Shown here: positions 755 to 29,631 of the stretch, in pieces
Layout: each line of letters starts with the position of its first letter
Position numbering within the stretch: position 1 is the stretch's first letter
Origin: Candidatus Dojkabacteria bacterium
Lineage (GTDB): Bacteria; Patescibacteriota; Dojkabacteria; B142; JAFGFJ01
Direction: 5' to 3'
Length of the DNA: 64,000 bases
NCBI GenBank assembly: GCA_016931155.1
Contig: JAFGFJ010000005.1
Location: 1,547 to 65,546, forward strand
Notes under the pieces: model-generated
Told to the model about the DNA's origin: nothing
Seen by the model: only the letters and a program-made list of their open reading frames with translations
Database searches by the model: none
Made by a program: the position numbers and the translations under genes

Positions 755-3700
755 ATGGTCACGAAAGAGATCTTCAAACGAAAACTTCAGAACCTGGTCG
801 AAAGATTTCAGAAATTTGAAATTGAGAACAAAAGATCAATTTATAACGAAACGCTTGCAAGACGTGATTTCATTGATCCGTTTTTTGAAGCTCTTGGCTG
901 GGATATAGACAACAGGAAAGGTCTCTCTTTCGACTCCCGGGAAGTTATACATGAGGATCAGCTTAAAATACAAGGTAAGTTTAAAGCTCCTGACTACTGT
1001 TTCAGAATTGATGGGAGAAGAAAATTCTTTGTGGAGGCAAAGAAACCCTCGATAGATATTAAACGGGGATTCTCAGAGTCGCTTCAGCTCAGACGCTATG
1101 GCTGGAATGGTGAGACTTCTCTTTCTATCCTTACCGATTTTGAGGAACTTGCTATTTATGATACGAGGATTAAACCAAAGCTTTCCGACACTTCCAAAAT
1201 TGCAAGAATTGAATACATAAAATACACAGAATATTTGGATAAATGGGAGCATATTTACGATATTTTCTCGAAAGAAGCAGTCGAAGGCGGGAAATTTGAT
1301 GAATTCATTGGTAAGCCAATTAAAGGAGTACTCAGTGTTGATAAGGACTTTCTCGAAACTATTAGCAATTGGAGAAACTGGTTAGCGAAAGATATTGCTA
1401 CAAATAACAAGAAAATAACCATAGAGAACCTGAACCTTACTGTTCAGAAGCTGATCGATAGAATTATCTTTTTAAGGATTGCAGAAGATAGAGGTTTGGA
1501 AGAATATGGGAATTTGCAAAATTTAATCAAATACAAAGACTCCTACAAAAGACTTGTAGAACATTTTGTGGTAGCTAATAAGAAATACGATAGTAATTTA
1601 TTCGAATTTGAAAGTGGATTGACCCCGAATTTGAAAATATCGGATAAGATTTTGGATAAAATATTAGATGATCTCTACTACCCTACTTCACCGTATGAAT
1701 TTTCTGTAATTGGTGTTGAATTGCTAGGAAAAATTTACGAGCAATTTTTAGGAAAAGTAATCAGGCTAACTTCCTCACACAATGCTGTAGTTGAAGAAAA
1801 ACCTGAGGTTAGAAAAGCTGGAGGCGTATACTACACTCCAAAGTATATTGTCGAATATATTGTCAAAAATACAGTTGGGGAGCTTGTTAAAGGAAAGACT
1901 CCAAAGCAAATTGAAAAAATAAAAATAGTTGATCCAGCGTGTGGTAGTGGAAGCTTTCTTATTGGAGCATATGATTATTTGCTGGATTACCATTTAAATT
2001 ACTATATGAAATCCAATCCTTCACAATACAAAAAGGAAGTTTTTAAAGACTCTTTAGGAAACTGGCTTCTAACTACTTTAGAAAAGAGGAAGATCCTTCT
2101 CAATAATATTTATGGTGTAGATATAGATAGACAGGCAGTTGAGGTGACGAAGCTGAGTTTATCTCTAAAAATGCTTGAAAACGAAAATAGAGAAACGATA
2201 AATCAGCAGCTAAAAATTTTTGCAGAAAGAATTCTTCCAGACCTTGAGGGTAATATCAAGTGTGGGAACTCACTAATTGGGAGTGATTATTGGGATGATA
2301 AGGATTTGAGTAAAGTAACTGAGGAAGAAATAAGAAAGGTAAATTCATTCGATTGGAAAAAAGAGTTTAGTGAAGTGTTTAAGCAAGGAGGGTTTGATGG
2401 GGTGATAGGGAATCCGCCGTATATTAAGATTCAGGGACTACAGGAATTTGCACCTGAACAAGTCTCATACTTGAAAAGTACATATGAGTCAGCCTCTAAA
2501 GGGAATATAGACATCTATGTAATGTTTTTGGAGAAGTCGCTTAAATTGCTCAACAAAACGGGACTTTCTGGCTTTATCTTACCACATAAATTCTTCCAAG
2601 CAGATTTCGGGTCTATGGTCAGGAGAATCATAAGTACAGGAAAATCTGTTAGAAAAGTACTAAGTTTTAGGGAAAAGCAAGTATTTACAAACGCAACTAC
2701 ATATACCTGCTTGTTATTTTTATCTGGAAGGCAGAATAAAGTCTTCAATTATTCACAAATACGAGAAAATCAAGACCCCGAAGGGTATCTTAAAAATGTA
2801 AAATTTAATAAATTGACAAGTGATCAACTGGATCATGATAAGTGGAATCTTACTAACCTGGAAACAAAATCTGTTTTAGATAAGTTAAATCGAAATACTA
2901 TTACGCTTGGTGACATCACTGAGAAAATTTTTGTTGGTTTACAGACAAGTGCTGATAAAATATACGTCTTAGAGATTTTGGGAGAGGATACAGATAACTA
3001 CAGACTGTTTTCGAAGAGTTTAGGAAGGGAGGAAATTTTAGAAAAAGGTCTTTGTAAGAAATTCCTAATGGGGAAAGAAGTCCACAGATACCAACCCTTG
3101 ACTGCAAAGAACGTTGTTATTTTTCCATATAAGTTAAATAAGAATGAACCTGAACTTATGCCACTAGACTACATACGTTTAAATTTCCCAAAAGGTTATG
3201 AATATATACTAAGAAATAAGGAAGAACTTGAGAGAAGAGAAAAAAGCAAATTCAAAGATAGCTGGTGGTGTTTTGGTAGGCCACAGAACTTACACGACTT
3301 TGATAAGGAGAAAATAGTGATGCCAGATATCTCTGTTAAACCCGAACTCACTTATGATGAGAGCAACTTGTATCATACGACGACAGTTTATAGCGTTCTC
3401 TTCAAGGAAATTAAGGAAGATCCGATCTATGTGCTTGGTGTATTAAATTCAAGCCTTTTTTGGTTCTTTATCAAAAATACTGGAACAGTTTTACGCGGTG
3501 ACTATATACGATTTAAGACAAATTATTTAAAACCATTTCCAATTAGATTAATTAATTTCCATAACAATGAAGAAAAAACAACTCATAACGATATCGTTAA
3601 AATGGTAAGACAAATTCTTAGTCTAAAAAAAGAGTTGATTTCAAATATGTCAAATTTGCAGAAGAAACTTAGTGAGAAGAGGATTGATAACTTGGAGATG

Positions 3701-3775
3701 AAGATCAATCAGGATGTTTATAAATTGTATAAATTAACAGAAACAGAAATAGGTATTATTGAGAAATCATTATGA
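755..3775 (+). CDS. Type IIG restriction-modification enzyme: PD-(D/E)xK endonuclease fused to a gamma-class N6-adenine DNA methyltransferase and a target-recognition region (MmeI/Eco57I-like single chain)
   Basis: N-terminal PD...D...EAK motif (APDYCFRIDGRRKFFVEAKKP). Motif X GGVYYTPKYIVEYIV, SAM-binding motif I DPACGSGSFLIGA, and catalytic motif IV GNPPYIKIQ. Length 1006 aa with a long C-terminal TRD-like region. Confidence 0.85.
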   Translation: MVTKEIFKRKLQNLVERFQKFEIENKRSIYNETLARRDFIDPFFEALGWDIDNRKGLSFDSREVIHEDQLKIQGKFKAPDYCFRIDGRRKFFVEAKKPSIDIKRGFSESLQLRRYGWNGETSLSILTDFEELAIYDTRIKPKLSDTSKIARIEYIKYTEYLDKWEHIYDIFSKEAVEGGKFDEFIGKPIKGVLSVDKDFLETISNWRNWLAKDIATNNKKITIENLNLTVQKLIDRIIFLRIAEDRGLEEYGNLQNLIKYKDSYKRLVEHFVVANKKYDSNLFEFESGLTPNLKISDKILDKILDDLYYPTSPYEFSVIGVELLGKIYEQFLGKVIRLTSSHNAVVEEKPEVRKAGGVYYTPKYIVEYIVKNTVGELVKGKTPKQIEKIKIVDPACGSGSFLIGAYDYLLDYHLNYYMKSNPSQYKKEVFKDSLGNWLLTTLEKRKILLNNIYGVDIDRQAVEVTKLSLSLKMLENENRETINQQLKIFAERILPDLEGNIKCGNSLIGSDYWDDKDLSKVTEEEIRKVNSFDWKKEFSEVFKQGGFDGVIGNPPYIKIQGLQEFAPEQVSYLKSTYESASKGNIDIYVMFLEKSLKLLNKTGLSGFILPHKFFQADFGSMVRRIISTGKSVRKVLSFREKQVFTNATTYTCLLFLSGRQNKVFNYSQIRENQDPEGYLKNVKFNKLTSDQLDHDKWNLTNLETKSVLDKLNRNTITLGDITEKIFVGLQTSADKIYVLEILGEDTDNYRLFSKSLGREEILEKGLCKKFLMGKEVHRYQPLTAKNVVIFPYKLNKNEPELMPLDYIRLNFPKGYEYILRNKEELERREKSKFKDSWWCFGRPQNLHDFDKEKIVMPDISVKPELTYDESNLYHTTTVYSVLFKEIKEDPIYVLGVLNSSLFWFFIKNTGTVLRGDYIRFKTNYLKPFPIRLINFHNNEEKTTHNDIVKMVRQILSLKKELISNMSNLQKKLSEKRIDNLEMKINQDVYKLYKLTETEIGIIEKSL

Positions 3776-4473
3776 AAAACATAAAAGATGTAATAGGAAA
3801 AGGAAGCTCTAAGCTATTACAGAGCCACTTAATACAAAGGATTATCGACTTCGTTTTTTCCTTTAGCATAATGATCGTTGCCTATTTGCTTATTATCAAA
3901 TTGATTCAGCTTTTGACCAAAACTAGCCTTAGTTTTGACGATTCTGATAAACAAAACCTAGTACAAATTGCTTTATTAGCAGGACTGTTTGCGACGGTGA
4001 GAGAAGCAATAGCAAACAGACAAGAAGCAGTCAAACTAAGAGAATCTGAAGAAACACCTATTCTTACCATGCACATCAGGACGGTTGATATAAATGAGCT
4101 TAAAAAACATGGTCTTGATGGTTGGGATTTTTATAATATTGGTGAAAATATTTATAAATATATAGTTATTAGAAACACGGGGAAAGGTACAGCCCTTAAT
4201 CTCAAAGTTAATCCTATTGATAATCGAAACATGGAGTTTGCTGAATTTAAGAATTACGTCATTGCTCCTGGATCGGATGAGGTAGCAATTAAGCTAAAAA
4301 ACAAACCTGTAGATCAGAAAGAACTAAACGGGGTTCAGTATAAAATTGAAACTGAGACTATTTCAGGCAAAAAGTGGTTTTACAGATCAGAGATTAGAGA
4401 TGTAGAAAAAAATTACATTATGTTTGTAAAGATGACGGACAAAGAAGGAGAATTAATGAAAAACAATATCTAA
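3772..4473 (+). CDS. Hypothetical membrane-anchored protein, 233 aa: N-terminal TM helix plus a beta-rich soluble domain, embedded between two restriction genes
   Basis: ATG overlaps the RM gene stop (ATGA). The hydrophobic N-terminal segment is FVFSFSIMIVAYLLIIKLIQLL. No recognisable catalytic motif. Confidence 0.5.
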   Translation: MKNIKDVIGKGSSKLLQSHLIQRIIDFVFSFSIMIVAYLLIIKLIQLLTKTSLSFDDSDKQNLVQIALLAGLFATVREAIANRQEAVKLRESEETPILTMHIRTVDINELKKHGLDGWDFYNIGENIYKYIVIRNTGKGTALNLKVNPIDNRNMEFAEFKNYVIAPGSDEVAIKLKNKPVDQKELNGVQYKIETETISGKKWFYRSEIRDVEKNYIMFVKMTDKEGELMKNNI

Positions 4474-6340: not shown

Positions 6341-7141
6341 TTACACCGGCCTCAATGTCCCTGCAAACACCTGCCAGGCAAGGAGGCTTTTGGCAACCAA
6401 GCTCAAAATTATATATACCTTTTCTCCCCATAAATAATCCTTCCACTTCCCTACTCTTCTGTACTGAAGAAACATATTTATCGCAAAGACGTTGAAGAAC
6501 AGGAAAATACTGAAGAATATATAATAAACAAAATCCGGAGCCTTGGATTCACCTTCTCCTGAACCAAAAAGATAAAGTGCTACAACTACCCATGGGACTA
6601 TCCCTGCAAAACATCCCATTATAAATGCTGTCCAGTTGGTCTTTTTCGTTGTCTGGTTGTGAACTTCCATCACCCATCCAAACAGAATCATCGTTGCATT
6701 TAAGCTAAACATCAAAAGCAAAGAACTGAAATCATAAACGCCAACGAGAAGAGCTATTACGACTATCATTACAGATGAGCTGAATGAATATTCAATCCAC
6801 CTTGCATAATTGATCCCTTTTTCTAGATTTCGTTTGTACCATTCATAAATCCCGGGCAGAGAAATTGTAAAATGAGCGATTGCAGAAAGAAATAGAAAAC
6901 CTGCAACAAGATAACCAAGTTTGACCTGTGTTAATTGCTCAACACTTGGGATAAGAGTAAAAGTAGCTTCATCAAGCTTGAGGTAACTGGTGTTTACAGG
7001 AAGCTTAAAATCATTTGTAAGAATGACCATTAAGATGCCTTGAAGGAGATGAAATCCTCCCATAAATAGATTAAAGGTTCGAAGGTTTTTCATGAAGAGT
7101 GCGTAAAATGTATACCATAACTCTAAATGATTATTTTTCAA
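6341..7141 (-). CDS. Heliorhodopsin, a 7-TM retinal protein with inverted topology
   Basis: Strong collinear similarity to heliorhodopsin 48C12 as I recall it: FHLLQG, ANDFKLP, RWIEYSFSSSVMIVVIA (counter-ion Glu), NATMILFGW, GIVPW, FLFFN, and LQYRRVGKWKDYLWGEKVYIILSLVAKSLLAWQVF (Schiff-base Lys in SLVAKS). The true start may be the second Met (MKNLRTF). Confidence 0.85.
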   Translation of the reverse strand: MKNNHLELWYTFYALFMKNLRTFNLFMGGFHLLQGILMVILTNDFKLPVNTSYLKLDEATFTLIPSVEQLTQVKLGYLVAGFLFLSAIAHFTISLPGIYEWYKRNLEKGINYARWIEYSFSSSVMIVVIALLVGVYDFSSLLLMFSLNATMILFGWVMEVHNQTTKKTNWTAFIMGCFAGIVPWVVVALYLFGSGEGESKAPDFVYYIFFSIFLFFNVFAINMFLQYRRVGKWKDYLWGEKVYIILSLVAKSLLAWQVFAGTLRPV

Positions 7142-7928: not shown

Positions 7929-9386
7929 TTAGTTAATCCACTTTCTTCCGTCTCTTCTTATTAGATCTTCTGCTTCATTAGGTCCCAAGGTGCCTTTTTC
8001 ATAGTTCGGGAAATTGGGCGGCGGCATCCTGTTCCACTCTTTTCTTATGTGATCAACGAATTCCCAGCTTGCCTCAATTTCATCATTTCTAACGAATAAA
8101 GTTGAATCACCTCTTATAATATCCAATATTAATGTTTCATAAGCATCAGGGATTTTTTCTTTAAATTCTTCTCTGTATTTAAGATCGAGGTTTGCAAGCT
8201 CGACCTTTTCCTTACCGGGGGTTTTGTTCAAAAGTTTGATCTCAATTCCCTCATCCGGCTGGATGTTATATGTGAGTGTATTGGCACAGTAGTCAGAGGA
8301 AATGAGAAGGTCTTCATCTCCCTTGAATTTGATAATAATTTTTGTCTGCTTTTCTTTAAGCTTTTTACCTGAACGAATGTATATTGGAACATTCTCCCAT
8401 CTTTCGTTTTCTATAAATAGCTTCATTGCTACGAATGTTTCTACATATGAGGACTTATCTACTCCTTTTTCTTCTCTGTATCCTTTGTACTGCCCTCTTA
8501 CAATATGCTCCCTGATTTCATCTTTTGAATAAAGTCTGAGGGATCGAATAATATCTGCTTTTTCGTTTCTAATGTGCTTCTCATCAAAATACTCAGGTTT
8601 CTCCATGGCAATGTGGGCAACCAGCTGGAGAGCATGATTTTGTATGATATCCCGGAGTGCACCGGCGTTTTCATAATATGTTCCTCTGCTTTCAAGACCT
8701 ATTGATTCGAGAATGGAAATCTGTACATGGTCGATAGACTTTTTGTCCCAGGATGTATCGAATGCCTGGTTTGCAAATCTAAAGAACAGGAGATTTTGAA
8801 CAGTTTCTTTGCCAAGGTAATGGTCGATCCTGTAAATTTGCTCCTCCTTAAATACTTTTTTTAGCTCTTTGTTCAAAATCTCCGCACTTTTAAGATCGTT
8901 TCCAAATGGCTTTTCCACTACAATCCGGGTATTTTTTCCTTCGCAGATACTTCGAAGCTTTGATGACTGTATATTCTGGATGATTGGATAATAGGCTTGA
9001 GCTGGGGTTGCAAGGTATAGAATAATTTCTGCATTGTAGTCAAACTTTTTTAAAAAACCCTCAATTTTTAGTGAAATTTCCTCGAAATCATTCCTTTCTG
9101 CAAAAAATCCCTGGTGATAAAAAATGTTTTTTGTAAATTTTTCCCACAATTTCCCTGTGTTTTTTCCATCTTTTTTTAATTTGGAATATAGACTTTTTCT
9201 ATATTCTGTGTCTGAGAGCGGTTTTCTGGAGAAACCCAGTATTTTGAAATTTTCTGGAAGAAGCTTCTGCCTGTACAAACTGAAAATAGCTGGTAAAAGT
9301 TTTCTGTGAGTCAAATCCCCTGCTCCACCAAAAATTACAAAGAAAACAGGAATGTCATTGATTTTGTTTTTGAGTAGTTCTATCAA
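7929..9386 (-). CDS. zwf: Glucose-6-phosphate 1-dehydrogenase
   Basis: N-terminal NADP-binding motif IFGGAGDLTHRKLLPAIF. Active-site signature RIDHYLGKE. Length 485 aa. Confidence 0.9.
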   Translation of the reverse strand: MIELLKNKINDIPVFFVIFGGAGDLTHRKLLPAIFSLYRQKLLPENFKILGFSRKPLSDTEYRKSLYSKLKKDGKNTGKLWEKFTKNIFYHQGFFAERNDFEEISLKIEGFLKKFDYNAEIILYLATPAQAYYPIIQNIQSSKLRSICEGKNTRIVVEKPFGNDLKSAEILNKELKKVFKEEQIYRIDHYLGKETVQNLLFFRFANQAFDTSWDKKSIDHVQISILESIGLESRGTYYENAGALRDIIQNHALQLVAHIAMEKPEYFDEKHIRNEKADIIRSLRLYSKDEIREHIVRGQYKGYREEKGVDKSSYVETFVAMKLFIENERWENVPIYIRSGKKLKEKQTKIIIKFKGDEDLLISSDYCANTLTYNIQPDEGIEIKLLNKTPGKEKVELANLDLKYREEFKEKIPDAYETLILDIIRGDSTLFVRNDEIEASWEFVDHIRKEWNRMPPPNFPNYEKGTLGPNEAEDLIRRDGRKWIN

Positions 9387-16669: not shown

Positions 16670-17827
16670 TTAGAAAAACTTGCTGATGAAGTTCAGCCAT
16701 AAAGTAATAGTAAGAAATAATAAAGCTCCTATGCTCACTATAGACATAAGCCCGAAGCCAAGAAGAAAGATTAATCTGTTTTTATTATTGCCTACTCTTT
16801 CCCCTCTCAGAAAATTCAAAAGGGTTTTTATACTCCTTGACTTGAGTTTAGGCTCGTCCAGCAGGTCAATCAAAATATAATAACCGTCAAATTCAACAAA
16901 TGGAATTAGATTAATTGCAAAAGAAAAAAAGTTGACTGTTAACATCTGAAAAAGTAAGTACTGAAGCGATATGTCTCTGACAAAAACCGATATCATTGCA
17001 CAAATACCTCCAACAAATAAATTAGAAACAATACCTGCAGATGAAATTGCTATTCGTTGTTTCTTTGGCAGTGACCATGCATTAGTTGTATCGGCGTAAA
17101 ACACCGGGTAACCCAAAAAGAATAATACTCCGACTGAACGAATTGGGAGGTTGTATTTCTTTGCGGTCAAAGCATGAGCTGATTCATGGATGAATATTGA
17201 GATCATATTAATGATAAGTACTGTTAAAAAATTGTTGAGTAACGTATCCCCTGGATTGATGAATGTAATTTTGCAATTAGTTGAGCATAAAAATAATCCT
17301 GAAATAGCTATAGCAGCAACGGAGAGAAAAATTTGCCTATTAAAAATAAATTTTCTCAGTATTTTGTATAAGAAGGAATAAAATTTGTCGGCAGAGCCGA
17401 AATCAAGTTTGAATATAAGAACTCTAAATAATTTTCTAACGAATCCGGTTAATCTTTGGTCTGTTTTTTTTGTTCTTTTTTCTATCAAATTATAAATATC
17501 TTTTTCTACTGGCTCTATTAGTCCAATCGTAAGCCAATGTTTAATTAGCTTATCTATGTAGTCTGTGCCCAGTTTACTAAAGGTCTGGAAATATAGACTG
17601 TTGAGTTCTTTAATATCGATTCCAGCAGTAATAGACTCAAAAACAAAGGCTTCATGACTCTCAAGCAGTATGCTGTCTTCATTTTTTCTCAAAACAATAA
17701 GTGGGAATTTTTTTTCACCCGATTCTTTGGTCTCAGACTGGTTAATTATTAGCTCTACTTCACCAGCTAACCTGTATTTTTTCTGGATGTTTTCCAGATG
17801 TGATTCTATTATGTCTCGTGAGCTCAT
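16670..17827 (-). CDS. M50-family (site-2 protease-like) intramembrane zinc metalloprotease with a ~170-aa N-terminal cytoplasmic domain
   Basis: HExxH within a TM helix (IFIHESAHAL) and the S2P NxxPxxxxDG motif (NLIPFVEFDGYY). Confidence 0.7.
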   Translation of the reverse strand: MSSRDIIESHLENIQKKYRLAGEVELIINQSETKESGEKKFPLIVLRKNEDSILLESHEAFVFESITAGIDIKELNSLYFQTFSKLGTDYIDKLIKHWLTIGLIEPVEKDIYNLIEKRTKKTDQRLTGFVRKLFRVLIFKLDFGSADKFYSFLYKILRKFIFNRQIFLSVAAIAISGLFLCSTNCKITFINPGDTLLNNFLTVLIINMISIFIHESAHALTAKKYNLPIRSVGVLFFLGYPVFYADTTNAWSLPKKQRIAISSAGIVSNLFVGGICAMISVFVRDISLQYLLFQMLTVNFFSFAINLIPFVEFDGYYILIDLLDEPKLKSRSIKTLLNFLRGERVGNNKNRLIFLLGFGLMSIVSIGALLFLTITLWLNFISKFF

Positions 17828-17828
17828 A

Positions 17829-18041
17829 CTACTCCAGTTCGGGGATGGTTATTGGTTTTGGTGTGGGATGGCATTTGCCACACCAGGAAGCGTCTTCAAC
17901 TATCATAGCTTTTGGAAAGTCATTGTCCTCATCGTAAGTACTAAGTATGTAGGGCTTGAAATGCCTGTGATTTTCGCAGATAATCCTTCCACAAAACTTA
18001 CAAATGAAGGATGCTTCTCTTTCGCACAGACTGCACTTCAT
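17829..18041 (-). CDS. Small Cys-rich zinc-ribbon protein, 70 aa, immediately upstream of the M50 protease
   Basis: CxxC...CxxC...H.H...CxxCH arrangement (MKCSLCEREASFICKFCGRIICENHRH...WCGKCHP). A 1-nt gap separates it from the protease start. Confidence 0.45.
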   Translation of the reverse strand: MKCSLCEREASFICKFCGRIICENHRHFKPYILSTYDEDNDFPKAMIVEDASWCGKCHPTPKPITIPELE

Positions 18042-18120: not shown

Positions 18121-21100
18121 ATGACAATATCTCATGATGAATTTAAAACAGGAATAAATGAAAGCAGAAATACAGAATATGGAGACGATTCTGTCGAAAT
18201 AAGTGGGAAAAATCTGCAAGGCTGGAGTATTGAAGCACTTAATGAAGCTATTGGCTGGAGAAGAAGATATGAGTCATTTATTTTTACTGGATTGAGTGAG
18301 CCCATTATCAATAGACTGAGGAATTTTACTTCAGCAGAAGCAGCAGTGTCTGAAGGTGCGTGTGTGATAGCTACAGATATTAAGGGGTCTACAAGGCTTG
18401 ATCCAGAGGGAATAGTTGAAATACTTAGATTAATACCGGAAGTAATAATCACTAATGCAATATATTTTGAATCTTTCTTTCGTAGAAACGATTATGGAAA
18501 TGATTCAGACACTATATCCAGAACGTCCAAAGGAATTTGTCCAATAAAGATTGCAGGCGATGGTGTAGAAATGATGGGAGTATTTGAAGATCCATATCTA
18601 AGAACGGCGTCTATGCTTTTGACTGCACTGTCGCTTCTCAAAAAATCGGACGAAAAACTGCGAGTTGGTGTCTTTGATAAGCCTACTGCGGAATCTGATC
18701 CAGCTATTATGTGGAAGACTTATGTAGCATTAAACGATATTGACAATATACTGGGGGAAACAGTTATGCCGATGGAATCTGAAGCTATGCAAGTTAGAAA
18801 GTGGAGTTGCGATGATGATATCGATTGTGGATTAAAAATCCGGATTACCAGGCAGACTGCAGAGTTATTTGCAAAAACATGTAGTAATTTGACAATAATA
18901 AGGGAGAGTATTGGAGGAAAGACACTATATCGGGCTGATTTGTCGAATTATGAGAATATAACAGTACATAGGTCAGATGGTACAGATCCAATTAATTTGG
19001 GAACGATGCTCGATAATTCAGAGCAAGTTTTCGATCTGTTTAAAGTGCAAGTGGAGTCTTTAATTCATAAATATGACGGGGCAAATGTTACAGAAGTGGT
19101 TTCCTGCGTACCCGACAGCACGTTTATTTTTTTAAATCCTGTTAATTGTTCCACATCAGATCAATATGATGAATTCTTTGGAGCCTGTGCAGAAATATCA
19201 CAAAAAATTTTCTGTCTTGATCCTGGTAGACAGGAGATTCCTGATGTAAATGATAAGGGTTTTATTGTAATTACGACTACTACTGAAGATTTAAAGAAGG
19301 TAATAGAAGTTTCTACAACTTCTCCTGATTTGGTTTTCCCTGTGATTACTACGGGTAGTGCGAAAACTGTCTTTGTTCCTGGTCTTGGAAGAATAATGCT
19401 GAGTAAATTTGGTTCCGGTGTTGCGAAACAGTCCAATTTAAAGGCAGGAGGATATACTCCGAGAAAAGGAGAGATAGCTCGCTTTTATGGTGGACTGGGT
19501 ATAGTACTTCCTGCCGGCATTGTTTGCAGTGCTGGTTACGACTACGATAGGGATCTTGCTTCTTACGAAATAAAAGGCATTGAAGATGGGATTTATACAG
19601 GGGAATATGAAACAGATAAAAATACATTTATTGAAAGGAATTTGGGTCTTCAACCTGTACTTCTATTATACCGGGAGTTTCAATCAGAATTTAACAGATA
19701 CTTGGAGAGAGGTGACTTTTATACCCTTGAATTCAGGCTTAGGCAACTAAAGGAGGTAGATCCACGTTTTGTTACGAGCAAGGGTCAAACACAACATCGA
19801 ATAAGTTCTGAGACTATAAAGGCTCAAAAAGAATATATGGGTAACTTTTCAGAGGAACAAAAGACTATATTTGATTTGATTAATCTGGTTCAGAGTATTT
19901 CTGAAGATGACTTGCTTTCTCTTGGTGAATCTATTGGGTATCGAAAAGATATGATTATGACTCTGATTCAAAATTTGGAGTACCACGCTTTTATTAAGAG
20001 AGTGCAATCTCAGGAAAGCGACACAAGGAGTCAGGAATTAATACAAACCAACAGGCTATATGTTGAAAACATTGAATGTGAATCGTTGGAAGGTCTTGTT
20101 GAAAAATTGGGTGCAAAAGATTCAATTTGTGCAAATGCTTTAGTAAGGAGACTTATATATCTTGCTGACACGGTGAGTAATCCGTACAGTAGAGCCTGCA
20201 TAGAATTGGTTGTTTCCAGATTTCACTTAACCCGGGGTTTTGAATTGAGTGCAGGAGATTATAAAATGAGAGCAGCCAGCAATCTACTGAAATTTATAGC
20301 AGCAAGTTACTCAGTTGGTGTAGGCTACTCTGGTGAAAGAAGTGATAGCAGCCAGGTATTTCCGGACGTGATCCATAATCTGGATCCGGATATTTTCACC
20401 AATACTCAAGATAAACTGAAAGTTATTTTGGCAAGAATTGACTATTTATCACAACTGGTGAGCCCATCAAAGGAAGCTGTTGATATGCTGGAGAAATCCA
20501 GAGAAGAATTTCTGAACATTCTAAGTAGGGATAAGCAGGATATTCTTGGTAATGATGAGGAGGCTGAAGTTTTTGCAGAAATGCTTTCAAGAATTGCTGA
20601 TGCTGATAGGGATGGTGACAAGAGGATATACTCAGTAGTTTCCGGGATGATAAGCGAAAAAGATCGGAGAGTTTCTCCAAGACTTAAGGCTACTTTACTA
20701 TATGGCATATTCGGGGAGGATCATTATCGTATGGAAGGGACTTATGAAGAGATAAACTTGAAAACAATTGAAAGGGCGAATTATATTATTCGTTTCGGGT
20801 CAAAAAGGATAAGAGAATATGCGATGCTATCAATGTATAGTATGGCAGCGAGGGGTTCTGTTTCCTTTGGTATTTTAAAAGATGGAAGACTGTTCAGTGA
20901 TGCTCAAATGCAGAATGAGAGTTGGTTTATAGAAGAATGTAGAAATATGTTGTTGAACAGCCATGAGCAAGGAATTAACAATGCTATTGTAAGAACCAGA
21001 GCAATGGTAAATCTGGTTCCATTACTGCTTTTTAATAATCAACAGGAGGCAGCAATAGAGGTGGCAAAGGATTCATATTTTGAGGCACTTCGAACGGGCA

Positions 21101-21834
21101 GAGAGGATGAGATAGGAGCAGCTTACTCTACATTACTTGCGTTGTATTTAAAATTGAATGAAAAGCCGTTTGAATTAACAAAGGAGACTATTTTAGATGC
21201 TATTATTTTTGGTCACGATTACCTAACTTCCAGATCTGCTGTTCCACGAATGACTTATAACCTTGTCAACCAGGCGAATAATACGGTTATGTTAATGTGC
21301 GAAGATGATAAATTATTAAATGGGGGTGGTGATGATTATTATCTCATCAGGTCAGATCTATTGAGTGTTATTAAAAAACTACTTATTGCAGGTTATGGAA
21401 AAAAATGGAAAGCTGAAGCAATTGCAATATTTGTGGAGGACTATCTTTTGCAGACTGGGGATTATTGCATGAAAATAATTCAAGAAATGGTTGAAGACAT
21501 TTTATCAGGATATGAGTGTAACTCAGTCAGGGAGTATCTGAATGAAAGTGGTATAGATATAGAAGACATTAAAAAACTATCGGAACAAGTGGGAGAGCCA
21601 AAACAAGAAACAGAAGGAAAGACTAAATTAGTTAATGAAATAACTGGGTTGGTAAAAAAACATGGGTTGGCTCACGGTATCCTGATTGAGAAAATGAAGA
21701 AAGAAGTACAGATATTGGACGTCAGAGAACCTGATCAACTCAAGGATTTCCTTGAAAAATACAGCATACAATTAAACTATCCGCATTCCGCACTTGCGTA
21801 TCTAAAAGAAGTCCTTATTTCTGAGAATATCTGA
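18121..21834 (+). CDS. Large orphan protein, 1237 aa: N-terminal region with class III nucleotidyl-cyclase-like motifs, then ~1000 aa of alpha-helical, TPR/wH-like sequence
   Basis: VIATDIKGSTRL resembles the F.DI.GFT.L metal-binding strand. KIAGDGVEMMGVF resembles K.IGD..M..F. KLRVGVFDKP resembles R.G.H.G. No P-loop found. The remainder is unassignable. Confidence 0.55.
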   Translation: MTISHDEFKTGINESRNTEYGDDSVEISGKNLQGWSIEALNEAIGWRRRYESFIFTGLSEPIINRLRNFTSAEAAVSEGACVIATDIKGSTRLDPEGIVEILRLIPEVIITNAIYFESFFRRNDYGNDSDTISRTSKGICPIKIAGDGVEMMGVFEDPYLRTASMLLTALSLLKKSDEKLRVGVFDKPTAESDPAIMWKTYVALNDIDNILGETVMPMESEAMQVRKWSCDDDIDCGLKIRITRQTAELFAKTCSNLTIIRESIGGKTLYRADLSNYENITVHRSDGTDPINLGTMLDNSEQVFDLFKVQVESLIHKYDGANVTEVVSCVPDSTFIFLNPVNCSTSDQYDEFFGACAEISQKIFCLDPGRQEIPDVNDKGFIVITTTTEDLKKVIEVSTTSPDLVFPVITTGSAKTVFVPGLGRIMLSKFGSGVAKQSNLKAGGYTPRKGEIARFYGGLGIVLPAGIVCSAGYDYDRDLASYEIKGIEDGIYTGEYETDKNTFIERNLGLQPVLLLYREFQSEFNRYLERGDFYTLEFRLRQLKEVDPRFVTSKGQTQHRISSETIKAQKEYMGNFSEEQKTIFDLINLVQSISEDDLLSLGESIGYRKDMIMTLIQNLEYHAFIKRVQSQESDTRSQELIQTNRLYVENIECESLEGLVEKLGAKDSICANALVRRLIYLADTVSNPYSRACIELVVSRFHLTRGFELSAGDYKMRAASNLLKFIAASYSVGVGYSGERSDSSQVFPDVIHNLDPDIFTNTQDKLKVILARIDYLSQLVSPSKEAVDMLEKSREEFLNILSRDKQDILGNDEEAEVFAEMLSRIADADRDGDKRIYSVVSGMISEKDRRVSPRLKATLLYGIFGEDHYRMEGTYEEINLKTIERANYIIRFGSKRIREYAMLSMYSMAARGSVSFGILKDGRLFSDAQMQNESWFIEECRNMLLNSHEQGINNAIVRTRAMVNLVPLLLFNNQQEAAIEVAKDSYFEALRTGREDEIGAAYSTLLALYLKLNEKPFELTKETILDAIIFGHDYLTSRSAVPRMTYNLVNQANNTVMLMCEDDKLLNGGGDDYYLIRSDLLSVIKKLLIAGYGKKWKAEAIAIFVEDYLLQTGDYCMKIIQEMVEDILSGYECNSVREYLNESGIDIEDIKKLSEQVGEPKQETEGKTKLVNEITGLVKKHGLAHGILIEKMKKEVQILDVREPDQLKDFLEKYSIQLNYPHSALAYLKEVLISENI

Positions 21835-21856
21835 TGTTTTTCCTGAACCTCAATAT

Positions 21857-22075
21857 TCAGGAAAATCTACTAAAACCCTTGGTAATTCTTTCGTCCAGAC
21901 TTAATGAAAAAGCATTTAATTTTTCGGAATCGAGTTTGATCAAAGTTTCTTTTTCTTCTGGAGTGAGGTCGGTGTATTCTACAAGGGCTTCCTCTGCGTT
22001 TTCCATAAGTATTTTCCGAAATTCTGCATCCGTTGCAGCTCGCCCAATTACTGCTTGTACTGTTGATAAAGACAT
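21857..22075 (-). CDS. Small protein, 72 aa, with an NHLP/Nif11-like leader-type domain
   Basis: GRAATDAEFRKILMENAEEALVEYTDLTPEEKETL follows the A.A..D..F+..L..(D/N)P..AL.E....L.EE pattern of NHLP/Nif11 leader domains. There is no GG cleavage motif and no Cys-rich core. Confidence 0.4.
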   Translation of the reverse strand: MSLSTVQAVIGRAATDAEFRKILMENAEEALVEYTDLTPEEKETLIKLDSEKLNAFSLSLDERITKGFSRFS

Positions 22076-22164
22076 AGCAAATTAGAGTAAAAAATAAAAC
22101 GGGTCAAATGATCGTAATCATTCAACCATCACAAGTAAAACACAAATTCTTTATAAAAACAACT

Positions 22165-26390: not shown

Positions 26391-27794
26391 TTGTGCATGA
26401 ATAGTGCTGTATTTGTGAATGAATTGCAGAGAAGAAGATTTGAAATAGTGAAGCTATTTGCAACAATTTTCTTGGCAGGCTCGTTGCTTGCAGTGGTTCT
26501 TGATGCTTATGGTATTCTTTCAGGCAGTCTGAAAAGGAGTGAGTATGAGATTTTTCTCTTTATTGGTCTCGCTTGCTTTGTTCTTTTTGCCTTTATAAGA
26601 ACTTATCTTGTTCATAAAGCATTAACGCTGTCATTTGCGATTATTGTTGCCTTGCTTACTATTGCCGCTTTATATACGATGCTGGTCGGCGGTACAACTT
26701 CTGCAATATCCTTTCTTCTTATGACAATCTCTGTACTTTCCATTAGTATTGTGATTAGTGTAAAGATTGCTTTTTTTTACATCATTATTAGTTCAATTTG
26801 CACTTTCAGTATTTTCCTTCTGCATAACAAACAGATAATAGATTACACTCCATCGCTGACTGATTCCGGATTTGCAAATACACTAATGTATATTACATCT
26901 ATGTTGGTAATTACGTATGTTGCAGGAATTGCTTACTCGCAGATTGAACATTCTTATCAAAAAGCATATGACTATGCTAAGGAACTTGAAGAATTGAACA
27001 AACATCTTGATGAAAAAGTTAGACTACGCACTAAGCAGCTTCAAGAAAGTCTGGAGAGACAGGCAGATTCTGTTCACAGTGCAGCAGTGATGGGAAGTAT
27101 TGCAAAACCGATGCTTCATGATCTGGCTACTCCATTATCCTCTCTTGCAGGTGCACAGAGCCTTCTGAAAAAAGTAAAGTTTGATCAAAAAACACATGAG
27201 ATAATTGAAATGAGCAACCAGGCAGTAAGTCAAATAGCGAGAATTGTAGAAAATGCCAGGAATCTTATGGACAATAAAAATTTAGTAGTAGAGTTTTCTC
27301 CATATGATGTTATTTCGGTTGCTATCCTGGTCTCAAAACATGAACTTCAAAGGGACAATATTACTGTGAATGTAAGAATTGACCCAATGATTAAACTCAA
27401 CGGAGTTGTGGGTATCTTTGAAAGAATGGTAATAAATCTTATTATCAATGCGGTAGAAGAGCTGGGACAGTGTGAGAGTGATAGAAGAATTGATATAAAA
27501 GGAAATAATGAAGGTAAGTATTTTGTTTTAAAAATAAAAGATTCGGGTCGGGGAATAAAGAGGGAATTTATAGACAGGATTTTTGATTCAGATTTTACAA
27601 TGAAGAGTGAAAGAAATTTAGGTTTTGGTCTTCCATTTGTTAGAAATAGTATAGAGAAAAATTTTGCTGGAGATATTTCAGTTAGAAGCAAGTTGGGGGA
27701 ATTTACTGAATTCACACTTAGATTTGATAGGAAGTTCAATGCCAGAAAAATTAAGAAAGGTAAAAAAAATAAAGAGTTTTCTGTTAAGAAATAG
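26391..27794 (+). CDS. Membrane sensor histidine kinase
   Basis: About 5 N-terminal TM helices. H-box MLHDLATPLSSL. N-box NLIINAVEE. G1 DSGRGI. G2 GFGLPF. Confidence 0.85.
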   Translation: MCMNSAVFVNELQRRRFEIVKLFATIFLAGSLLAVVLDAYGILSGSLKRSEYEIFLFIGLACFVLFAFIRTYLVHKALTLSFAIIVALLTIAALYTMLVGGTTSAISFLLMTISVLSISIVISVKIAFFYIIISSICTFSIFLLHNKQIIDYTPSLTDSGFANTLMYITSMLVITYVAGIAYSQIEHSYQKAYDYAKELEELNKHLDEKVRLRTKQLQESLERQADSVHSAAVMGSIAKPMLHDLATPLSSLAGAQSLLKKVKFDQKTHEIIEMSNQAVSQIARIVENARNLMDNKNLVVEFSPYDVISVAILVSKHELQRDNITVNVRIDPMIKLNGVVGIFERMVINLIINAVEELGQCESDRRIDIKGNNEGKYFVLKIKDSGRGIKREFIDRIFDSDFTMKSERNLGFGLPFVRNSIEKNFAGDISVRSKLGEFTEFTLRFDRKFNARKIKKGKKNKEFSVKK

Positions 27795-29631
27795 TCTGGT
27801 AAGTCTCACCGAGGCGTACAATTTCAGAAATAAGTCATGTAGTGAAAAAGAAGAAAAGGTAAGAATACTCCTTCCTGTTGCCCTTACACTTCACGCATTG
27901 AGTTTTTGTCCCAGTAAAGTCTTTACAGAGCAGGAACATCGAAAAATTAATTCGCTTTTGAATTATATTATCAAAAAGGGTGACGGGAAGCTTTCTTATA
28001 ATTACTATACTGGCAACTCAAAATCGAGTAAAGAAGTCTTTTTCCCAGATGACCTTGATGACACGTCTTTTTGTCTTTCTGCGCTTTTACGATTTGACAA
28101 AGAAATAGATGAACGATTTTTTCTAAAAATAATTAATCTGGAGGTTAAACCAGGGGGACCATATAATACATGGTATGTTTCAAAGAGAGAAAAAGATAAT
28201 CGCTGGCAGGATATAGATCCAATAGTAAATGCTAATCTGCTATATATGATTTCCCTTTATGGTGTGAGGCTGAAATCCAGCGAGAAGTATCTCCTGGGTT
28301 GCTTAAAGAAAGGTATGTTTAATTCTCCTTATTATCCTTATTCAATTATTTTTATATTATTTCTATCAAGGTTTGCAAACAAAAGTAAGAATGACAAATT
28401 TACAGCTGTCCTGGTAAAAGAATTGCTGAAGTACAAATACACAAAACTTGAGCCAATGGAAAAGATTTTTTACTTGTTAGCTTCTGTCTATCTTGGTGTG
28501 TCAATTGAACAAGAAAATATTGATGAGGTTTTATTTTGGCAAAATTCTGATGGCTCTTTTCCGCCTCTACCATTTCGTTTTAATATGCAGCAAAGCACTA
28601 AAAGAAAAGCATTTACAGGAAGTTCAGTTATAACCTCTGCTCTTGTTTTAGAGCTTCTTCTTCTTACAATTGATCAAACAAAGAAGATAATTCCATCTTA
28701 CTCAATGTTTGACAAAAAAGCATCCAGGCTCATTGAAAAAAGCAGAAAGATTATTGCAAAAGAGTTGAGTGTAAATGGCATTAATAGAAAAGAACATGAT
28801 GCTCTTATCAGTCCGGGATCCTATAAAATACTGGATTTTTTTTTCAAGACTGCCTTGTGTCTTAGGGAATCACTAACAAGAAGTCAGCAGATTGAATTGA
28901 TGAAATTGTCGATTGCTGTATTTTTTTTGTGGAGCGGGTATACGGTTATTGACGAATTGATAGATAAACAATTGAGTATTGCGGCGATCCCTCGGGTAAA
29001 TACTTTAATAAGAATTGGATGGAGCTATCTATGTAGGATAGTTGACTTCAGAAAAATAAAAAAAGAAATAAACAAAGCATTTCTTGATTGTGATGACGTA
29101 TATTTATGGGAAATTGAAAGAATGAGATTTAATCCGGAAAAATTAGATTTTGATTTTAAAAAAATACTTACTTACAGATACATAGAAAAAAGAATGCAAC
29201 CATTCCTTATTTCAATAAGTTTTATTCCACAGATTTTAGAACTTTCAAAGAAAAAGGGAGTAGAAGTATACAGATTTTTTAAAGCCAAAATGATTATTGA
29301 TCAGTTTAATGATGATGCTCATGACTGGGAGGATGATTGGAAGGCTGGTAGAATGACTTATGTTCTATACAGATTGTTTAAGCAATCGGGAAGTGCTTCA
29401 AAAAATGGAAAAGATAAAAATATTTTTTATAAATCATTTTGGAGTAGCGTTATTGATGAGGTAATAAAAATTTGTGAGAAAGAATACAAAATAGCCAGAT
29501 CCGCAGTAAGAAGACTAAAACTAAATGAAAGGGAATTTTATTTCAATGAGCTTTTGGAAAAAGCCTATAAGCCTATCAGACAGGCGAGTAAAGAAAAAAA
29601 TAGGGCGGAAAAATTTATTCAGTCTCTATAA
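27739..29631 (+). CDS. Two-domain terpene-synthase-like protein: N-terminal class II cyclase-like domain (DxDDTS, QW-like repeat) plus C-terminal class I / isoprenoid-synthase-like domain
   Basis: FFPDDLDDTSF matches the squalene-hopene-cyclase-type DxDDT(A/S) motif. LFWQNSDGSFPP resembles a QW motif (Q..DG.W). The C-terminal half has DELID (DDxxD/DExxD-like) and, ~125 aa later, NDDAHDWEDD (NSE/DTE- or NxxxDxxED-like). The start is placed at the ATG at 27739, which has an AGGAAG RBS and overlaps the HK gene by 55 nt. The first in-frame Met is at 27664. Confidence 0.5.
   Translation: MPEKLRKVKKIKSFLLRNSLVSLTEAYNFRNKSCSEKEEKVRILLPVALTLHALSFCPSKVFTEQEHRKINSLLNYIIKKGDGKLSYNYYTGNSKSSKEVFFPDDLDDTSFCLSALLRFDKEIDERFFLKIINLEVKPGGPYNTWYVSKREKDNRWQDIDPIVNANLLYMISLYGVRLKSSEKYLLGCLKKGMFNSPYYPYSIIFILFLSRFANKSKNDKFTAVLVKELLKYKYTKLEPMEKIFYLLASVYLGVSIEQENIDEVLFWQNSDGSFPPLPFRFNMQQSTKRKAFTGSSVITSALVLELLLLTIDQTKKIIPSYSMFDKKASRLIEKSRKIIAKELSVNGINRKEHDALISPGSYKILDFFFKTALCLRESLTRSQQIELMKLSIAVFFLWSGYTVIDELIDKQLSIAAIPRVNTLIRIGWSYLCRIVDFRKIKKEINKAFLDCDDVYLWEIERMRFNPEKLDFDFKKILTYRYIEKRMQPFLISISFIPQILELSKKKGVEVYRFFKAKMIIDQFNDDAHDWEDDWKAGRMTYVLYRLFKQSGSASKNGKDKNIFYKSFWSSVIDEVIKICEKEYKIARSAVRRLKLNEREFYFNELLEKAYKPIRQASKEKNRAEKFIQSL

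Follow-up and report, generated by a model that had tools for sequence, protein, structure and literature searches.

A singleton 1237-residue protein

The window analysed here is a stretch of 64,000 nucleotides from Candidatus Dojkabacteria bacterium (assembly GCA_016931155.1, contig JAFGFJ010000005.1, positions 1,547 to 65,546). At positions 18121–21834 of the window, a single open reading frame (ORF) runs from ATG to stop on the forward strand and encodes a protein of 1237 amino acids (aa), the N-terminal part of which bears a faint resemblance to class III nucleotidyl cyclases. The frame is uninterrupted, and its position and length are as given by a first-pass annotation that a model had made of the same DNA. 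In-frame stop codons lie directly upstream of the ATG, and the G+C content of the gene (0.37) is like that of its surroundings. The gene and its product comprise the following features:

18121–21834, forward strand: singleton ORF, 1237 aa, identical to the NCBI hypothetical protein JW796_01250 of Candidatus Dojkabacteria bacterium
18121–18354, forward strand: N-terminal extension, residues 1–78, with no family match
18355–18945, forward strand: putative, very divergent class III cyclase-homology domain (CHD), residues ~79–275, based on the PADLOC PycC match and on hhalign
18376–18378, forward strand: D86 codon, the residue being in register with the first metal-binding Asp, in the F-x-D-I-x-G-F-T strand
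18547–18561, forward strand: K143-I-A-G-D147, aligned with K-T-I-G-D, which contains the substrate-specifying Lys and the second metal-binding Asp
18661–18672, forward strand: R181-V-G-V, aligned with the R-I-G-I strand
18754–18765, forward strand: G212-E-T-V, aligned with G-D-T-V
18988–19680, forward strand: middle region, residues ~290–520, mixed α/β in a low-confidence model
19681–21831, forward strand: C-terminal body, residues 521–1237, with ~40 predicted helices, α-solenoid- or tetratricopeptide repeat (TPR)-like at low confidence

The protein is a genuine singleton, in agreement with its first-pass description as an orphan. The cluster of JW796_01250 contains one sequence from one contig, and a word-index search among 5.8 billion clustered proteins returns the protein itself as the sole match. 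Likewise, an exhaustive phmmer search with residues 1–1200 returns nothing but self among 1.84 billion representative proteins. Searching 50,697 phage and 72,556 plasmid records with tblastn gives no match, and sequence searches of Pfam, NCBIfam, and PDB give no match even at E ≤ 10. The identical sequence is also present in the Logan assembly of run SRR13394437. The protein has no transmembrane segment and no internal repeat detectable by BLAST. A motif scan for [AG]x4GK[ST] finds no Walker A motif in it, also as first annotated.

Weak match to class III cyclase profiles

The proposal of a cyclase-like N-terminus was originally based on three motifs, ATDIKGSTRL (residues 84–93), KIAGDGVEMMGVF (residues 143–155), and KLRVGVFDKP (residues 179–188), all of which are present in the protein. 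The proposal holds in part. An unbiased alignment to the profile puts all three motifs on the columns expected for class III cyclases, but the statistics are marginal and the transition-state Asn/Arg pair is absent.

The only profile-library match of the protein is to the PADLOC model of the Pycsar cyclase PycC (PDLC00761). Residues 82–120 are aligned with positions 108–146 of the 438 positions of this model (E = 4.3e-4, 17.2 bits), and the E-value is already corrected for the 5027 models of the library. The match, 39 residues in length, recurs when the isolated segment serves as the query (E = 0.0025).

We assemble a class III cyclase profile from 120 PF00211 proteins, retrieved with a class III consensus sequence that on its own recovers all PDB cyclases. 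When residues 61–290 are aligned with this profile by hhalign, the score is 25.5 (P = 0.003, probability ~10%), and the alignment extends over 132 collinear columns, with residues 81–253 matched to profile columns 2–150 of 172. A smaller profile of five cyclase sequences gives a score of 23.2, exceeding all 100 shuffles.

As judged from these profiles, the signal is specific to class III/Pycsar-type cyclases. Another palm family, e.g., a GGDEF diguanylate cyclase or a Cas10-type palm, would have the palm fold in common with class III cyclases, and its Asp-bearing strands would be similar. However, the protein has no GG[DE]EF motif, no Pfam GGDEF match, and no PADLOC match except PycC. In addition, a GGDEF profile composed of four PDB diguanylate cyclases and a consensus gives an hhalign score of 13.5, which equals the null mean, so the GGDEF alternative is rejected. 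We consider membership in any other palm family extremely improbable.

To set the class III score against background, we use two kinds of controls. The first are two sets of shuffles, 200 each, of which the first set, composition-preserving, was scored by raw score only. The second are 213 natural tiles, i.e., 230-aa pieces of proteins encoded in this window and in seven related loci. A score of at least 25.4 is reached by 2 of the 200 shuffles in the first set, by none of the 200 in the second set, and by 2 of the 213 tiles, and the significance of the raw score is therefore ~1%. The two tiles belong to release factor RF-1 (score 25.9) and to a protein with no Pfam match (score 30.3), and their matches are short and local, covering 47 and 60 columns, respectively. 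Neither the 132 columns nor the sum of probabilities of 74.1 obtained with residues 61–290 is reached by any of 413 controls (the 213 tiles and the 200 second-set shuffles). The control maxima are 65 columns and a sum of probabilities of 40.7 among the tiles and 63.0 among the second-set shuffles. Taken together, the profile comparisons lend weak but consistent support to a cyclase domain.

Candidate active-site residues

In the profile alignment, both metal-binding Asp columns are occupied, the first by D86 and the second by D147. Of the substrate-specifying pair, K143 is in register with the Lys, whereas the Asp column holds N208, with D207 adjacent. The segment K-I-R-I-T-R-Q-T is aligned with the strand and helix that follow G-D-T-V. 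Relative to the class III profile, the protein has an insertion of 20 residues between helix 1 and strand 2. After G212-E-T-V, the V-N-x-A-x-R segment, which carries the transition-state Asn and Arg, is replaced by a 3-column gap and M-P-M.

Structure models

AlphaFold2 without an alignment models residues 1–560 at a predicted local distance difference test (pLDDT) score of 35. DSSP assigns to this model the order β-α-β-β-α-β…β-α-hairpin, which is the order of a CHD, although at such confidence the agreement carries little weight. In particular, the model has a strand at residues 81–85, a helix at 95–103, a hairpin at 142–155, a helix at 157–172, and a strand at 180–186, and further on a strand at 239–242, a helix at 244–253, and a hairpin at 258–273.

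Residues ~290–520 give no cyclase, P-loop, or PADLOC signal. Two candidates for this part of the protein were rejected. A second, degenerate CHD in residues 290–545, which would make the protein a pseudo-heterodimer, was suspected by eye, but its hhalign scores of 11–14 equal the null. A P-loop/STAND (signal transduction ATPase with numerous domains) middle domain is rejected for lack of a Walker A motif.

The C-terminal body (residues 521–1237, 717 residues) is predicted by AlphaFold without an alignment to be all-helical, with a pLDDT of 41. The best Foldseek matches of this model are generic α-solenoid and TPR proteins, among them importin-13, CAP-G, LGN, and RapI, with E-values of at least 2e-3 and template modelling (TM) scores of at most 0.42. 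There is no TPR Pfam match in the 1237-aa protein. At this low confidence, the predicted body can be called helical repeat-like at most. The first-pass estimate of ~1000 helical residues is too high, since in these low-confidence models ~700 C-terminal residues are helical and residues ~290–520 are mixed α/β.

Evidence against a cyclase domain

Several results weigh against a cyclase domain. PF00211 gives no match at E ≤ 10 with either the full protein or residues 1–278, and the protein thus stays below the Pfam gathering score of the family. A purpose-built cyclase hidden Markov model (HMM) is silent on the full protein in hmmsearch, and gives E = 0.061 at Z = 1 with residues 61–290. The hhalign probability is just ~10%, and the raw score is equalled or exceeded by two first-set shuffles and two unrelated natural proteins. 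The coverage statistic that sets the alignment apart from the controls was picked post hoc, when the data had already been seen. The transition-state Asn/Arg pair is missing from the alignment. The pLDDT of the N-terminal model is low, and the Foldseek matches of that model are meaningless. Finally, the protein has no homologue among the clustered and representative proteins searched, which could have shown whether the aligned residues are conserved.

In a rival reading, the cyclase likeness has arisen by chance, in a fast-evolving orphan of a kind typical of candidate phyla radiation genomes, which would serve as a helical scaffold or interaction protein and have no nucleotide chemistry. Such an origin fits with the lack of a curated family match (Pfam, NCBIfam, PDB), with the ~1% of unrelated sequences that equal the raw hhalign score, with the missing Asn/Arg pair, and with the selection of the motifs by eye in a single sequence. 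It also fits with the genomic context, as two unrelated orphans (830 and 148 aa) occupy the same slot of a related genome. However, chance accounts poorly for a PycC match with E = 4.3e-4 after correction for 5027 models, and for a collinear alignment of the whole domain that places every retained catalytic residue on the right column. Comparable coverage is found in no control, and the signal is class III-specific, with none for GGDEF. On balance, we regard a chance likeness as somewhat unlikely and a CHD in the N-terminal part as plausible, though possibly inactive.

Neighbouring genes

The 1237-aa gene is flanked by three genes on the reverse strand:

16670–17827, reverse strand: M50/site-2-protease-like intramembrane metalloprotease of the type that matures ribosomally synthesized and post-translationally modified peptides (RiPPs), with HExxH and N-x2-P-x4-D-G motifs
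17829–18041, reverse strand: divergent Cys-rich zinc-ribbon-like ORF, 70 aa, ending right at the point where the protease gene starts
21857–22075, reverse strand: Os1348-family small protein of the nitrile hydratase leader peptide (NHLP) clan, 72 aa, convergent with the 1237-aa gene (NF038399, 61.9 bits, cutoff 40; PF14407, 39.5 bits)

The 1237-aa gene points away from the zinc-ribbon/protease pair and towards the Os1348-like gene. Between the two convergent genes, and overlapping their stop codons, is a perfect inverted repeat of 10 bp, TTTTCCTGAA-n8-TTCAGGAAAA (21838–21865). The repeat is G+C-poor and lacks a T-run, and so is not a canonical intrinsic terminator. Given the divergent and convergent arrangement and the inverted repeat, the 1237-aa gene appears to be transcribed as a separate unit. 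A further ORF on the forward strand (21834–22085, 83 aa) overlaps the Os1348-like gene on the opposite strand and has no matches, and was rejected as probably spurious.

Among RiPP-maturing enzymes, the protease resembles that of daptide biosynthesis (an intramembrane metalloprotease, E = 3e-39) and the epipeptide protease YydH/LiaK (E = 8e-11), both matches falling below the equivalog cutoff. The zinc-ribbon/protease pair (16670–18041) recurs at positions 3–1282 of a locus (L007) on the metagenome contig Ga0123339_10005072, where the protease is 38% identical and the C-terminus of the zinc-ribbon ORF is conserved beside it. Downstream of the pair, this locus encodes a RecD-like helicase, a GNAT protein, and glyoxalases, and its upstream side ends at the contig edge. 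When the protease is used to scan genome contigs and metagenome contigs, each scan gives one distant match, and the other match (L002) is too distant to use.

The neighbours raise the question of whether the 1237-aa protein belongs to a bacteriocin- or RiPP-like island, as a regulator, an immunity factor, or a nucleotide-dependent modifying enzyme that acts with the protease, zinc-ribbon, and Os1348-family proteins. The resemblance of the protease to RiPP-maturing enzymes is in line with this. So is the convergent 72-aa ORF, which lies above the NCBIfam cutoff for the Os1348 family of the NHLP clan; in Pseudomonas, Os1348 has been described as a putative bacteriocin precursor (PMC7726476). Moreover, all four genes are missing from the same slot of related genomes. 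However, the protease is far under its equivalog cutoff (135 versus 300 bits), and the four genes have three orientations and do not form one operon. In locus L007, the zinc-ribbon/protease pair has no large homologue downstream, the upstream side being cut off by the contig edge. In addition, family searches detect no known RiPP enzyme domain in the 1237-aa protein. We consider membership in such an island quite unlikely, and a functional link between the 1237-aa gene and its neighbours is possible but unsupported.

Genomic slot

Conserved housekeeping genes enclose the slot that holds the 1237-aa gene, and the contents of this slot vary. The backbone common to Dojkabacteria reads L27-L21-FtsW-[variable]-(RNase T)-TruB-LTD protein, as seen by comparison with seven related loci that were reached through TruB homologues. 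Of the TruB homologues with genomic context, the closest has only 56% identity. The contents of the slot are as follows:

This window: Na/Ca exchanger, M50-like protease, zinc-ribbon ORF, 1237-aa gene, and 72-aa ORF
L003: Na/Ca exchanger and two unrelated orphans (830 and 148 aa)
L005 and L009: HhH-GPD glycosylase only
L008: several housekeeping genes

A synteny-guided search across the seven related loci finds no diverged counterpart of the 1237-aa protein. The two orphans of L003, encoded at 1172–4114 on the forward strand of a Dojkabacteria metagenome-assembled genome (GCA_034680565.1), have no family match. The 830-aa protein was tried as a counterpart of the 1237-aa protein and rejected, being unrelated to it in the comparison.

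The slot and the PycC match together bring to mind a Pycsar-like anti-phage cyclase, in which a large helical sensor, fused to the enzyme, would do the work of a separate regulator. The sole library match is indeed a Pycsar cyclase model, the gene sits in a variable genomic slot, and a large putative sensor body is paired with an N-terminal enzymatic domain. However, the match spans only 39 residues, and no relatives are present in the phage or plasmid collections. The variable slot of the relatives holds housekeeping-type genes rather than defence genes. The nearby genes also lack a Pycsar effector: none of the neighbours (protease, zinc-ribbon, Os1348-like, RNase T-like exonuclease, and TruB) has a cyclic nucleotide monophosphate (cNMP)-binding domain, a TIR domain, a Pycsar-type transmembrane effector, or a Pycsar-linked PADLOC match. 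An anti-phage role of this type is very unlikely.

Elsewhere in the window, a heliorhodopsin of 266 aa is encoded at 6341–7141 on the reverse strand (PF18761, E = 9e-105). A type IIG restriction-modification enzyme of 1006 aa, with HSDR_N, Eco57I/MmeI methylase, and TaqI_C specificity domains, is encoded at 755–3775 on the forward strand. A protein of 470–655 aa with no Pfam or NCBIfam match is encoded at 27664–29631 on the forward strand of the window, at 8545–9957 of L003, and at 6919–8622 of L004. In all three of these Dojkabacteria loci, it is flanked by a histidine kinase on one side and by a convergent OmpR-type response regulator on the other. On another Dojkabacteria contig (L009, 914–5245, forward strand), a compact type II CRISPR-Cas system (1037-aa Cas9, Cas1, and Cas2) is encoded a few kb away from the conserved backbone.

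Proposed function

The gene product is most likely a cytoplasmic, lineage-restricted multidomain protein with a CHD at residues ~80–275. We assign a probability of roughly 0.45 to the full reading, in which a very divergent class III CHD keeps the metal-binding half of the active site, lacks the Asn/Arg pair, and is joined to a large helical body with a plausible role in sensing a ligand or partner and in controlling CHD pairing. The class III cyclase-type fold, taken by itself, has slightly better than even odds. We infer not only this fold but also dimerisation, sensing, and any catalysis, and the first-pass proposal of a sensor coupled to a nucleotide-signal generator was likewise read from the architecture alone.

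In the mechanism we propose, the CHD would be followed by an α/β region of ~230 residues and then by an α-solenoid of ~700 residues. The CHD would retain D86, D147, K143 (four residues before the second Asp), and R181 of the Arg-x-Gly strand. The helical body may bind a ligand or a partner protein and thereby control the pairing of two CHDs, and a nucleotide site would be created at the interface of the paired CHDs. The output could be slow cyclic-nucleotide synthesis. Alternatively, the paired domains could bind a nucleotide without turnover, as a pseudo-cyclase, an output we consider because the Asn/Arg pair is missing.

A bolder version of the same idea, which we regard as unlikely, is that the protein is the founder of an unsampled class III-like clade, in which the Asn/Arg pair is substituted and a giant α-solenoid sensor gates the activity directly, without a STAND ATPase. 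If so, the protein would be a self-contained second-messenger generator in an episymbiotic bacterium with a reduced genome. If the domain of either version is a working cyclase, it would extend the class III family into sequence space that is invisible to current profiles. Dojkabacteria would then have cyclic-nucleotide signalling of an unusual design, in which sensor and enzyme are joined without an intervening ATPase. Should it be a pseudo-cyclase or a chance match, it would instead add one more large orphan in a variable slot of a candidate phyla radiation genome. Overall, the divergent CHD is a moderately supported lead rather than a demonstrated signalling enzyme.

Comparison with known systems

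The putative domain shares with class III CHDs (PF00211) a collinear stretch of ~170 residues, D86, the K-x-x-G-D, R-x-G-x, and G-[DE]-T-V motifs, and the order of strands, helices, and hairpins. It differs from them in scoring below every curated threshold, in the 20-residue insertion, in the missing transition-state Asn/Arg, and in that no second CHD is detected in the same polypeptide. The match to PycC covers the first Asp strand and the following helix, preceded in both proteins by an N-terminal extension of ~80–110 residues. However, only 39 residues are matched, the 1237-aa protein is three times as long as the profile, and it has no adjoining effector or defence context.

Fusion of a CHD to a large regulatory body is a well-known arrangement. 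In mycobacterial CHD+LuxR cyclases, the middle region is of the ATPase/TPR type. Three such proteins, Rv0386, Rv1358, and Rv2488c, have a CHD fused to a large regulatory body (PMC3466318). In these proteins, as in the 1237-aa protein, an N-terminal CHD would precede a very large helical-repeat regulatory body, with a total length of ~1100 aa. However, the 1237-aa protein has no Walker A motif and no AAA, NB-ARC, LuxR helix-turn-helix (HTH), or TPR Pfam match, and no sequence relationship to the mycobacterial proteins is detectable.

The C1 domain of mammalian adenylyl cyclases functions together with a C2 domain of the same polypeptide. In alignments of the AC8, AC5, and AC9 C1 domains, both metal-binding Asp residues are kept and the Asn/Arg pair is absent, as in the 1237-aa protein. 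The latter differs from C1 in two respects: no C2-like partner is detectable in it, and it keeps the Lys that is normally supplied by C2 rather than by C1.

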